A stretch of DNA of 5,472 nt, taken from NCBI RefSeq assembly GCF_003334315.1, contig NZ_QOWR01000094.1; one strand, written 5' to 3'. A model generated the notes under the pieces. That model was not told the origin of the DNA. It made no database searches and worked only from the letters and a program-made list of their open reading frames with translations. Within the stretch, counting starts at the first letter, position 1. Each line of letters starts with the position of its first letter. Positions 2,822-5,472 of this stretch are shown in pieces. This DNA is from Escherichia coli (GTDB lineage: Bacteria > Pseudomonadota > Gammaproteobacteria > Enterobacterales > Enterobacteriaceae). Position numbers and translations under genes: made by a program.

Positions 2822-4849
2822 TACATTCTGCGCCGCCGCGATGATTACCTGGAGCTGTTCGACAGGGATGCCCTGAGCAGCCGCTTCTTTTATGACGCCT
2901 TTCCGGGAATGCGCCTGCGCCACCCGGTGACTGACGATACCGACGATGACCGTCTGGCACACAGCCCCGCAGACCGGATGTACATGCTGGGCGGGATGAG
3001 CGACACCGCCAGCAACCGCATCACGTTTGAGCGCGACAGCCAGTACCGGATCACAGGTGTCAGTCACACCGACGGGATCCGGCTTAAACTGACGTACCAT
3101 GCCAGCGGCTACCTGAAAGCCATTCACCGCACGGATAACGGCATACAGACGCTGGCGACCTACGAACAGGATGCGCGGGGGCGGCTGACCGAAGCGGATG
3201 CGCGGCTGGACTACCACCTGTTTTATGAGTACGACGCTGCGGACCGGATCATCCGCTGGTCCGATAACGACCAGACGTGGAGCCGTTTCACCTACGATGA
3301 ACAGGGCCGGTGCGTGACCGTCACCGGGGCGGAGGGCTATTACAACGCCACGCTGGACTATGGTGACGGCTGCACCACCCTGACGGACGGCAAGGGCACT
3401 CACCGTTATTACTATGATCCCGACGGCAATATTCTGCGGGAAGCAGCGCCGGACGGCAGCACCACCACGTATGAATGGGATGAATTCCATCACCTGCTGG
3501 CCCGCCACTCCCCTGCCGGGCGGGTGGAGAAGTTTGAATACAACGCCGCACACGGTCAGTTAAGCCGTTATACGGCGGCAGACAGCGCGGTGTGGCAGTA
3601 CCGCTATGATGAGCGCGGCCTGCTCAGCAACATCACCGACCCAGCCGGGCAGACGTGGACACAGCAGTGTGATGAACGCGGCCTGCCGGTAAGTCTGGTG
3701 TCGCCACAGGGCGAAGAGACCCGGCTGGCGTACACGCCGCAGGGGCTGCTGTCGGGGATATTCCGCCAGGATGAACGGCGTCTGGGCATAGAGTACGACC
3801 ACCACAACCGGCCGGAAACACTCACCGACGTGATGGGCCGTGAACACCACACCGAATACAGTGGTCACGACCTGCCGGTGAAGATGCGCGGCCCCGGCGG
3901 TCAGTCAGTGCGGTTACAGTGGCAGCAGCACCATAAACTGAGCGGCATTGAACGTGCTGGAACCGGTGCGGAAGGATTTCGCTATGACCGCCACGGCAAC
4001 CTGCTGGCCTGGACGGACGGCAACGGCGTTGTCTGGACGATGGAATACGGCCCGTTCGATTTGCCGGTGGCGCGAACGGACGGTGAAGGCCACCGCTGGC
4101 AGTACCGCTACGATAAAGACACGCTGCAACTGACAGAAGTCATCAATCCGCAGGGCGAGTCATACCGTTATATTCTGGACAACTGTGGACGGGTAACGGA
4201 AGAGCGTGACTGGGGCGGCGTGGTCTGGCGTTACCGCTATGACGCCGATGGCCTGTGTACCGCCAGGGTCAACGGCCTGGAGGAAACCATCCTCTACAGC
4301 CGGGACGCCGCAGGCCGCCTGGCAGAAGTCATCACGCCGGAAGGCAAAACGCAGTATGCCTATGACAAATCCGGCAGGCTGACGGGTATCTTCAGCCCGG
4401 ACGGCACATCACAGCGCACCGGCTACGACGAACGCGGGCGGGTGAATGTCACCACTCAGGGCCGACGGGCCATTGAATACCACTACCCCGACGAACACAC
4501 CGTCATCCGCTGTATCCTGCCACCGGAAGATGAACGCGACAGACACCCCGATGAATCCCTGCTGAAAACCACGTACCGCTACAACGCCGCCGGAGAACTG
4601 ACGGAGGTCTTTCTGCCGGGGGATGAGACGCTGACGTTCAGCCGTGATGAGGCGGGACGTGAAGTGCTCCGGCACAGTAACCGGGGTTTTGCCTGTGAGC
4701 AGGGCTGGAATGCAGCCGGCCAGCTTACCAGCCAGCGCGCCGGATTTTTCCCGGAGGAAACCACATGGGGCGGGCTGCTCCCCCAGGGAAAGATCATCAA
4801 AAGTTCACTTTTTGCACTAAATAATTCGCATTTTATGTTTAAAAATTGA
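2822..4849 (+). pseudogene. rhs: Continuation of the same rhs gene (YD-repeat core) in the same frame after the internal TAG; 3'-truncated by an ISAs1-family element, with the last ~18 codons and the stop read from the IS-end sequence. Gene callers would report ORF 2909-4849.
   Basis: 1379 and 2909 are in the same frame (2909-1379 = 1530 = 3 x 510). Codons 2822-2908 are open and read as plausible protein (YILRRRDDYLELFDRDALSSRFFYDAFPG). There is no credible SD before ATG 2909. The translation is full of Rhs/YD-repeat signatures (YEYDAADR, YYYDPDGN, YRYDERG, YRYDADG, YAYDKSGRL, YRYNAAGEL). Only about 757 codons of core are present after the core start (~2543), which is shorter than a complete Rhs core (roughly 1200 aa) as I recall it, and there is no PxxxxDPxGL motif or C-terminal toxin domain. 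The ORF tail GKIIKSSLFALNNSHFMFKN is encoded by AT-rich sequence. Confidence 0.85.
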
Positions 4850-5472
4850 GATATTCCTTATTACCTGAAGCTGTTTTTTATTGCTTATACATGATCAAAT
4901 ACTTCTTACATAATTAAGGAGAACAAAATGGAACTTAAAAAATTGATGGAACATATTTCTATTATCCCCGATTACAGACAACCCTGGAAAGTGGAACATA
5001 AATTATCGGATATTCTACTGTTGACTATTTGTGCCGTTATTTCTGGTGCAGAAGGTTGGGAAGATATAGAGGATTTTGGGGAAACACATCTCGATTTTTT
5101 GAAGCAATATGGTGATTTTGAAAATGGTATTCCTGTTCACGATACCATTGCCAGAGTTGTATCCTGTATCAGTCCTGCAAAATTTCACGAGTGCTTTATT
5201 AACTGGATGCGTGACTGCCATTCTTCAGATGATAAAGACGTCATTGCAATTGATGGAAAAACGCTCCGGCACTCTTATGACAAGAGTCGCCGCAGGGGAG
5301 CGATTCATGTCATTAGTGCGTTCTCAACAATGCACAGTCTGGTCATCGGACAGATCAAGACGGATGAGAAATCTAATGAGATTACAGCTATCCCAGAACT
5401 TCTTAACATGCTGGATATTAAAGGAAAAATCATCACAACTGATGCGATGGGTTGCCAGAAAGATATTGCAGA
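4795..5472 (+). mobile_element. ISAs1-family insertion sequence (H-repeat element), left part; left boundary approximate (somewhere ~4770-4800), right end outside the window
   Basis: Abrupt switch from GC-rich Rhs coding sequence to AT-rich sequence at ~4795, followed by a gene for an ISAs1-family (H-repeat-associated) transposase. H-repeat elements are classically found in E. coli Rhs loci. The terminal inverted repeat was not identified, so the boundary is an estimate based on the composition break. Confidence 0.7.
4928..5472 (+). CDS. ISAs1-family transposase (H-repeat-associated protein, YhhI/YdcC-like), N-terminal 181 codons; 3'-partial, runs off the window
   Basis: ATG at 4928 with AAGGAG 7-12 nt upstream (taaggagaacaaaATG). 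The frame is open to the window end. The translation [78 protein letters not shown]...[75 protein letters not shown] matches, from memory, the N-terminus of E. coli H-repeat proteins. It is absent from the ORF track only because there is no stop in the window. Confidence 0.88.

Follow-up and report, generated by a model that had tools for sequence, protein, structure and literature searches.

Insertion of ISEc1 and a probable IS–IS deletion in the decay of a T6SS Rhs effector locus in Escherichia coli

How does an Rhs reading frame come to break off within its YD-repeat core and end in a short AT-rich tail just ahead of a transposase gene? We addressed this question in a stretch of 5,472 nucleotides from Escherichia coli (contig NZ_QOWR01000094.1, assembly GCF_003334315.1; hereafter the window). 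An earlier note on this DNA had proposed either IS insertion or IS-mediated deletion or recombination. Both appear to have happened, insertion first, as indicated by a natural intermediate in strain ET490 and by a hybrid IS. The insertion site, its target duplication, the intermediate, the hybrid IS and the loss of genes were all observed. We consider it probable, at roughly 0.85, that the locus is a T6SS effector locus that decayed in two steps, by insertion of an ISEc1 copy and then by deletion through recombination with a resident copy.

The cusS–nfrB interval of E. coli is the site of an island that comprises vgrG, an Eag chaperone gene and PAAR-Rhs. The window begins with the 3' part of vgrG, encoding the T6SS spike (7–870, + strand, as for all features below; TIGR03361 VI_Rhs_Vgr, E = 3.1e-87, profile positions 341–512 of 513). 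The 5' end of vgrG lies outside the window, and a full-length VgrG is annotated by PGAP at the same place in strain CP53. A DcrB/DUF1795-family gene follows (898–1359; Pfam DcrB PF08786, E = 1.7e-27; 'DcrB-related protein' in PGAP). It occupies the position of the Eag-type chaperone of prePAAR effectors and we take it, from knowledge of the family, to encode a putative chaperone. The next gene, rhs (1379–4783), is a truncated pseudogene of a class I prePAAR/PAAR/DUF6531/YD-repeat Rhs effector, which retains codons 1–1135 of about 1608. It contains the Pfam domains prePAAR_I, PAAR_motif and DUF6531, and eight stretches matching the YD repeat model TIGR01643 (E = 4.5e-68).

The delivery side of a T6SS PAAR-Rhs effector is present here, with YD repeats, an N-terminal prePAAR/PAAR region, and vgrG and the Eag-type gene upstream. 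The gene order, vgrG, DcrB/DUF1795 and then prePAAR-PAAR-DUF6531-YD repeats, is shared with class I prePAAR Rhs effectors. Unlike those effectors, the copy in the window is missing the C-terminal third of its shell together with DPxGL and the toxin, and an amber codon interrupts it. There is no shell closed by PxxxxDPxGL and no C-terminal toxin domain, the frame leaving rhs at codon 1135, and an in-frame TAG (2819–2821) breaks the reading frame further upstream. The gene is therefore a remnant and not a working prePAAR Rhs effector. Such a remnant would be unable to form a closed Rhs cage or to carry a toxin, and we regard it as a pseudogene that has probably lost its function.

Alignments to intact rhs alleles and to the IS place the end of rhs homology at 4783 and the start of the IS at 4784. 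Alignments to intact rhs alleles stop at 4777–4783; those of APEC O78 and O157:H7 are 96–97.5% identical to the window copy up to 4777–4782. The alignment to the IS sets in at 4783/4784, with the letters CAGGGAAAGAT. A PGAP pseudogene in CP53, 'missing C-terminus', has the same limits and also ends at base 4783. Beyond this point the Rhs frame reads through IS DNA (4784–4849), so that its product ends in GGLLP followed by QGKIIKSSLFALNNSHFMFKN, with TGA at 4847–4849. Given the exact break, the IS-derived tail is 21 aa long. The break had been placed at about 4795. The abrupt change seen there is real, with GC content falling from 0.625 at 4601–4800 to 0.285 at 4801–5000, but the exact position is 4783/4784 and the tail is one residue longer than listed.

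Other parts of that description stand: the ORF ends at 4849, the transposase gene starts at 4928, and the C-terminal tail is chimeric, being IS DNA, with DPxGL and toxin missing. Intact alleles extend 473 residues past the break and include DPLGL, at residue 1444 of 1608, as well as a domain of about 150 aa at the C-terminus; both are absent from the window. A Pfam search with this domain of about 150 aa, taken from a restored allele (below), gave no match even at E ≤ 10. The earlier note had named two findings that would speak against a truncation: an intact homologue ending at this position, and rhs homology running on through 4795–4849. No intact homologue ends here, and the alignments stop by 4783. 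For annotation, the AT-rich tail should be read as IS sequence and not as a new toxin tip.

The element is ISEc1, or H-rpt, of the ISAs1 family, and the window ends inside it, holding the left 689 bp of 1291 bp (4784–5472). The terminal inverted repeats that the earlier note had proposed to seek were located. The left one, CAGGGAAAGAT, lies at 4784–4794; the right one was seen in CP53, outside the window, where the full IS measures 1291 bp and ends in ATCTTGCCCTG (reverse complement CAGGGCAAGAT). The repeats are 11 bp long and 10/11 complementary. The IS is 98.6% identical to the H-rpt of K-12 RhsB (the yhhI element) over all 1291 bp without gaps, which bears out the proposal that an ISAs1-family H-repeat cut the Rhs core mid-shell. 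The 5' part of the transposase gene, 181 of 378 codons, runs from an ATG at 4928 to 5472, and PGAP gives the CDS of CP53 the same first base. These 181 aa match NF033564 transpos_ISAs1 with E = 1.4e-67 and 228.2 bits, against a cutoff of 70. Membership of ISAs1/ISEc1 is thus indicated by the family model, by an element of about 1.3 kb with terminal repeats, by near-identity to the K-12 H-rpt and by the target-site duplication described below.

The H-rpt of the K-12 Rhs elements is reportedly the subject of Hill-laboratory papers of the 1990s. The element here is that of K-12 H-rptB (yhhI), which likewise measures 1291 bp, has the terminal repeats CAGGGAAAGAT and CAGGGCAAGAT and is tied to an rhs locus. 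In K-12 RhsB, however, the element lies downstream of complete rhsB and yhhH, whereas here the core ORF itself is interrupted, and the events have left a traceable two-copy intermediate as well as a hybrid product. Our search for literature on H-rpt, ISEc1 or ISAs1 with Rhs found little, the matches to 'ISEc1' being mostly to other ISEc numbers; a mobilome preprint and an LTEE paper held nothing bearing on this event.

An intermediate was probed for with a synthetic reciprocal junction, consisting of the IS right end joined to the rhs continuation. The whole query was matched in exactly three genomes, those of the frog isolates ET490, ET670 and ET979. The annotation of ET490 gives the order rhs 5' part, ISEc1, rhs 3' part, small ORF, orphan rhs modules, ISAs1 and nfrB. 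The inserted IS of ET490 is flanked on both sides by a perfect 10-bp duplication, GCTGCTCCCC, and these 10 bp are present once at the empty sites, the uninterrupted alleles of S3 and AH62. The target-site duplication that the earlier note had suggested looking for thus exists in ET490, while the window holds its left copy only (4774–4783). Removal of the IS and one duplicate copy from ET490 gives an uninterrupted ORF of 1608 aa with DPLGL at 1444, whose product matches the intact protein of AH62 with 98.6% identity over residues 1–1474. Given the perfect duplication and the ORF restored by excision, the ET490 insertion may be taken as a clean natural record of H-rpt transposition; a 2011 genome paper described such transposition as not observed so far (PMC3032704). 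We propose that in a first step an ISEc1 copy transposed into the YD-repeat core after rhs codon 1135, duplicating GCTGCTCCCC, and that the Rhs frame would from then on have entered the left end of the IS and halted past 21 foreign codons.

A resident ISEc1 with an identical right junction at nfrB is found in APEC O78, O157:H7 F6321, 504239, AH62 and ET490. The interval between the inserted and the resident copy is 7.3 kb. A different arrangement, a single IS joining rhs 4783 to nfrB, was found with a full 2151-bp query in 36 complete-genome records; in 35 of them the alignment is unbroken, and in LR-17-1 an IS1 has inserted in addition. Among all records with this junction, the rhs 3' part is retained solely in the three ET490-type intermediates. 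In the deletion-type records, including CP53, nfrB starts 260 bp past the end of the IS. A search of this 260-bp right flank for an rhs relic gave no significant blastx or blastn match.

Comparison of the single IS of CP53 with the two copies of ET490 reveals a hybrid. It carries the inserted-copy allele at 11/11 discriminating sites over IS positions 17–657 and the resident-copy allele at 16/16 sites over positions 709–1270, and the resident alleles are the same in the copies of AH62, Z1323PEC0011 and OkiPb01684. All 11 discriminating sites in the window's part of the IS have the inserted-copy allele. In the CP53-type lineage the crossover interval (IS 657–709; window 5440 to about 5492) begins at 5440–5472, the last positions of the window. 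The RCAD0514-type genomes have a second crossover position, IS 1179–1220, and each of the two positions is common to several genomes. The right flank in the deletion genomes is the resident one. A target duplication was sought around the CP53 IS and none was found, the flanks being GCTGCTCCCC on the left and CCTGCTCACC on the right, as expected after IS–IS recombination. The right duplication copy has gone with the deleted segment (checked in CP53 and RCAD0514).

The hybrid allele pattern argues for homologous recombination between two IS copies, with removal of 8,644 bp. A two-copy precursor in direct orientation exists at the same site (ET490, ET670 and ET979), and the product is a hybrid IS with one switch point, an rhs left flank and the resident nfrB right flank. 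In the second step, then, the inserted copy would have lain in direct orientation 8.6 kb upstream of the older ISEc1, resident where the island borders nfrB, and RecA-type recombination between the copies would have excised one IS-length and all DNA between them. A RecA pathway is suggested by the long (1291 bp) and approximately 98% identical substrates. Lost in this step would have been about 310 residues at the end of the Rhs shell, among them the DPLGL autoproteolysis motif, together with the C-terminal toxin, its putative immunity gene and the orphan rhs and small-ORF modules farther downstream. One hybrid IS would remain, linking rhs 4783 to nfrB. Gene conversion patches between IS copies can likewise yield mosaic SNP patterns. 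The RCAD0514-type IS carries 15 private substitutions (positions 94–628) that neither ET490 copy explains, which counts against the two-step model.

The window reaches only IS position 689, short of the right limit of the crossover interval, so that its downstream state has to be taken from relatives. Insertion alone would make the window genome ET490-like: the 3' part of rhs would still be there, as would toxin and immunity gene, directly past the IS, which would be followed by GCTGCTCCCCTCACTGG. Such a state is real in three genomes, and the part of the IS in the window, positions 1–689, shows no difference between the hybrid of CP53 and the inserted copy of ET490. We nevertheless consider it unlikely, as 36 of the 39 records with the exact junction are in the deleted state. 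The window also differs from CP53 by two SNPs, sharing with it the alleles 165G and 4610T that ET490 lacks, and its nearest matches over 2700–3540 (ES6, RCAD0514, JX21CE33 and others) are all of the deletion type. The nearest relatives thus point to a window genome in the deleted state. The earlier suggestion that the displaced rhs 3' portion may lie beyond the IS, as after a simple fresh insertion, was rejected for this lineage: in CP53, as in 35 further records, 260 bp separate the IS from nfrB.

A deletion could also arise without any second copy, if the resident IS had used its left end for an intramolecular attack on the rhs core, in a one-ended adjacent event. The ancestral right IS junction would fit this, as would the lack of a target duplication flanking the CP53 IS and the differing left flanks of the same resident IS in several strains. 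It was ruled out, and we consider it very improbable, since in its left half the IS of CP53 and the window departs from the resident at 11 sites and agrees with the inserted copy, and since natural isolates carry a two-copy stage in which a clean 10-bp duplication marks the exact site. Collapse of two direct IS repeats during assembly, falsely joining rhs to nfrB, would also give one hybrid IS and a lost interval, but is the least credible account, given that 36 closed RefSeq chromosomes, whose projects and hosts are unrelated, show the same structure (judged from the assemblies), that two crossover positions are each common to several genomes, and that both copies are resolved in the ET490-type assemblies.

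Insertion followed by IS–IS deletion is not the only damage to this gene. The in-frame amber at rhs codon 481 (2819–2821), where relatives have CAG, is a second inactivating lesion seen in translation. Base 2819 is C in CP53, ET490 and RCAD0514, and no 100% match to 2700–3540 was found among 5,426 complete E. coli genomes; the amber codon therefore appears to be private to the window. For annotation, the 646-aa and 480-aa ORFs of the window are pieces of one dead effector gene.

Gene decay by IS is an ordinary, known process, the gene already bears the pseudogene label in RefSeq, and conceptually nothing here is new for Rhs, T6SS or IS biology. The mechanism is identical to the IS–IS direct-repeat deletion known generally from genome reduction, in which the interval and one copy are lost, the outer flanks kept and no duplication left. 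What sets this case apart is the survival of the intermediate alongside the product among sequenced isolates, and the presence of two crossover positions. Since the insertion, the natural intermediate and the hybrid product are all preserved, order and mechanism can be read directly, and the locus offers a worked example of the loss of a polymorphic-toxin locus. Strains of this type have probably lost toxin, immunity gene and orphan modules together.

C-terminal displacement of Rhs and orphan modules were described by Jackson et al. 2009 (PMC2935791). The conserved Rhs locus 4 of E. coli lies between nfrB and cusS. The chromosomal site and layout are the same here: a primary rhs comes first, and orphan core/CT fragments and small ORFs lie behind it. 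In displacement, new toxin tips are gained by recombination within the core, whereas here tip and immunity gene disappear through the IS along with every orphan module, which makes the outcome loss and not diversification. H-rpt/ISEc1 may be an active transposon, as the ET490 record suggests. With the resident ISEc1 as an anchor, we tentatively suggest that the Rhs island might be eroded repeatedly, each round comprising a new ISEc1 insertion into the rhs core and then IS–IS recombination with the fixed copy at the nfrB edge. In APEC O78 and S3 the resident IS has a short rhs fragment at its left end, corresponding to window 2803–2982 and 3154–3284, respectively; if the island does erode in this way, these fragments and the two crossover positions would be relics of separate rounds.

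The window differs from the chromosome of CP53 (NZ_CP033096.1) at only two bases, T for C at 2819 and C for T at 3421, and is E. coli chromosomal DNA. In CP53 the region is flanked by cusS and nfrB, the position of the conserved Rhs locus 4 in the 2009 survey of Jackson et al. (PMC2935791), who described this locus and its orphan-module layout. The window encodes the 3' part of vgrG (7–870, TIGR03361, E=3.1e-87), a DcrB/DUF1795-family gene (898–1359, Pfam PF08786, E=1.7e-27), an rhs gene from 1379 with prePAAR_I, PAAR, DUF6531 and YD-repeat matches and, as its last feature, the left part of an ISAs1-family element from 4784. 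Between the PAAR domain and DUF6531 lies a Lys/Leu/Gly-rich low-complexity stretch (GKLGNLAKLGKLGNLLGKSGKLLGAKLGALLGKTGKSLKS, window ~2410–2530, Rhs residues ~345–385) with only a weak Pfam glycine-zipper match (E=4.9). A 345-aa ORF antisense to the rhs core (2516–3553, minus strand) is of the usual spurious kind in GC-rich repeat-coding DNA. Outside the window, CP53 has an annotated IS903B transposase gene in the cusF–cusC interval (L001 974–1942), which is further IS activity near the locus; no gene is annotated in this interval in ET490 and AH62.

It is long established that IS elements insert into rhs genes, that H-rpt is associated with Rhs elements and that recombination between direct IS copies causes deletions. 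The Rhs frame stops at TGA 4847–4849 after the tail QGKIIKSSLFALNNSHFMFKN, GC content falls from 0.625 to 0.285 across the rhs/IS junction, and the transposase ORF starts at 4928 and scores 228 bits with NF033564, whose cutoff is 70; the earlier note had described these features of the junction accurately. It had placed the break around 4795, a position that can be refined. Alignments to the intact rhs genes of APEC O78, O157:H7 F6321 and strain 504239 reach 4777–4782, that to the IS starts at 4783/4784, and direct reading of the junctions gives 4784 as the first IS base (CAGGGAAAGAT). The PGAP pseudogene ends at the same base as this breakpoint. In RefSeq the gene is listed as a pseudogene that lacks its C-terminus, and truncation of rhs by an IS is here an ordinary, already annotated feature. 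The complete element in CP53 is 1291 bp long, its right end reading CAGGGCAAGAT as the reverse complement, and shares 98.6% identity without gaps with the yhhI-containing element downstream of rhsB in K-12, which we take to be the classical H-rpt. Thus, the proposed label of ISAs1-family (H-repeat) is correct.

The reciprocal junction was sought among 5,426 complete E. coli genomes with a synthetic query in which the final 200 bp of the IS run into the rhs sequence that intact alleles have after the breakpoint. The whole query is present in exactly three genomes, ET490, ET670 and ET979, all frog isolates, which also contain the window's left junction. The order in ET490 is a PAAR-Rhs pseudogene missing its C-terminus, the ISEc1 transposase, an RHS pseudogene missing its N-terminus, a 119-aa ORF overlapping the stop of that pseudogene, further rhs fragments and small ORFs, a second ISAs1 transposase and nfrB. 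The upstream IS copy arose by simple transposition into an intact gene, since GCTGCTCCCC lies on both of its sides and is single in the uninterrupted alleles of S3 and AH62, and since removal of the IS and one duplication copy leaves an open frame of 1608 codons, with DPLGL at residue 1444. Over residues 1–1474 the restored protein and the intact AH62 protein share 98.6% identity. In a first step, then, an ISEc1 copy transposed into an intact rhs core and duplicated its target. This step is directly visible in the window, because its portion of the IS (positions 1–689) carries the inserted-copy alleles and the left duplication copy is at 4774–4783. In 2011 a genome paper again stated that H-rpt had not been seen to transpose (PMC3032704); in view of this, the ET490 insertion, a clean natural transposition footprint of H-rpt, is of modest interest.

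The interpretation in the earlier note was right in substance and erred only over the 3' part of rhs, which it suggested may lie past the IS; in CP53, 260 bp separate the IS from nfrB. This IS and its right junction (CCCTG/CCTGCTCACC..., the slash marking the junction) also adjoin nfrB in O157:H7 F6321, APEC O78, 504239 and AH62, strains with a full-length rhs upstream of small ORFs and orphan modules. Because these strains share it, the right junction is old, and the IS next to nfrB is a resident component of the island. The full 260-bp flank occurs in 2461 E. coli genomes. About half of E. coli genomes lack its first 118 bp (L001 13676–13793), whereas the nfrB-proximal 142 bp are nearly universal; the 118 bp therefore belong to the island, not the core genome. 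No left flank sampled at the resident IS forms a target duplication with these 118 bp.

Of the 1291 positions, 27 distinguish the inserted from the resident copy in ET490. At all 11 of these from 17 to 657 the single IS of CP53 has the inserted-copy allele, and at all 16 from 709 to 1270 it has the resident-copy allele. A one-ended deletion from the resident copy, our first reading, is ruled out by the inserted-copy alleles in the left part of this IS, given that the resident alleles are also those of the resident copies in AH62, Z1323PEC0011 and OkiPb01684, all close relatives. The CP53-type product has one switch point, flanks from different parents and no right duplication half, the pattern that a single crossover between direct repeats is expected to leave. 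Such a crossover between the two IS copies would remove the interval and one IS, leaving a hybrid IS. The loss relative to ET490 is 8,644 bp, equal to the distance between the two IS starts. It comprises 473 codons of rhs (the shell end, DPLGL and a ~150-aa C-terminal domain that Pfam does not match), a small adjacent ORF that is probably the immunity gene, and all downstream orphan modules. In 36 complete-genome records the 2151-bp query for the deleted architecture aligns over its whole length, as one contiguous alignment in 35 of them and with an extra IS1 inside in the other, LR-17-1.

In window coordinates the switch interval runs from 5440 to ~5492, and the window ends within it. For the window's own source genome we infer the deletion from its nearest relatives: 165G and 4610T are common to the window and CP53 and are not found in ET490, and the best matches to window 2700–3540 are all deletion-type genomes. 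A source genome still in the ET490-like intermediate state would share the left junction equally well, and we consider it unlikely in view of these two bases and matches.

Within the rhs frame, an in-frame amber TAG at 2819–2821 (codon 481, CAG in all relatives) splits the gene into ORFs of 480 and 646 aa. This change is private to the window sequence, since no 100% match to window 2700–3540 exists among the 5,426 complete E. coli genomes. With 1135 of ~1608 residues encoded, the remnant has no C-terminal plug, no aspartyl autoprotease motif and no toxin. Judging from the established Rhs cage structure, it should be unable to work as an effector.

Eight of the 36 deletion records, such as RCAD0514, match at only 98.7%. 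The RCAD0514-type IS (L007 6301–7591) has inserted-copy alleles to 1179, changes over to resident alleles in the 1179–1220 interval, and carries 15 private substitutions (positions 94–628) that no sampled copy explains; PGAP marks the RCAD0514 transposase with an internal stop. This type reflects either a second deletion, and hence at least two from the same intermediate, or one deletion followed by gene conversion. Short rhs fragments abut the left end of the resident IS in APEC O78 (L002 14528–14707, equivalent to window 2803–2982) and S3 (L008 6460–6590, window 3154–3284), while its right junction is constant. These fragments look like relics of earlier IS-linked truncations and, with the two crossover types, hint that the process recurs at the locus. 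Z1323PEC0011 (L010 12680–15341) and OkiPb01684 (L011 12680–15781) carry a near-identical rhs allele truncated, without an IS, at window equivalents ~3916 and ~4478, apparently by recombination with downstream orphan rhs fragments. Thus, the locus decays by several routes in related strains.
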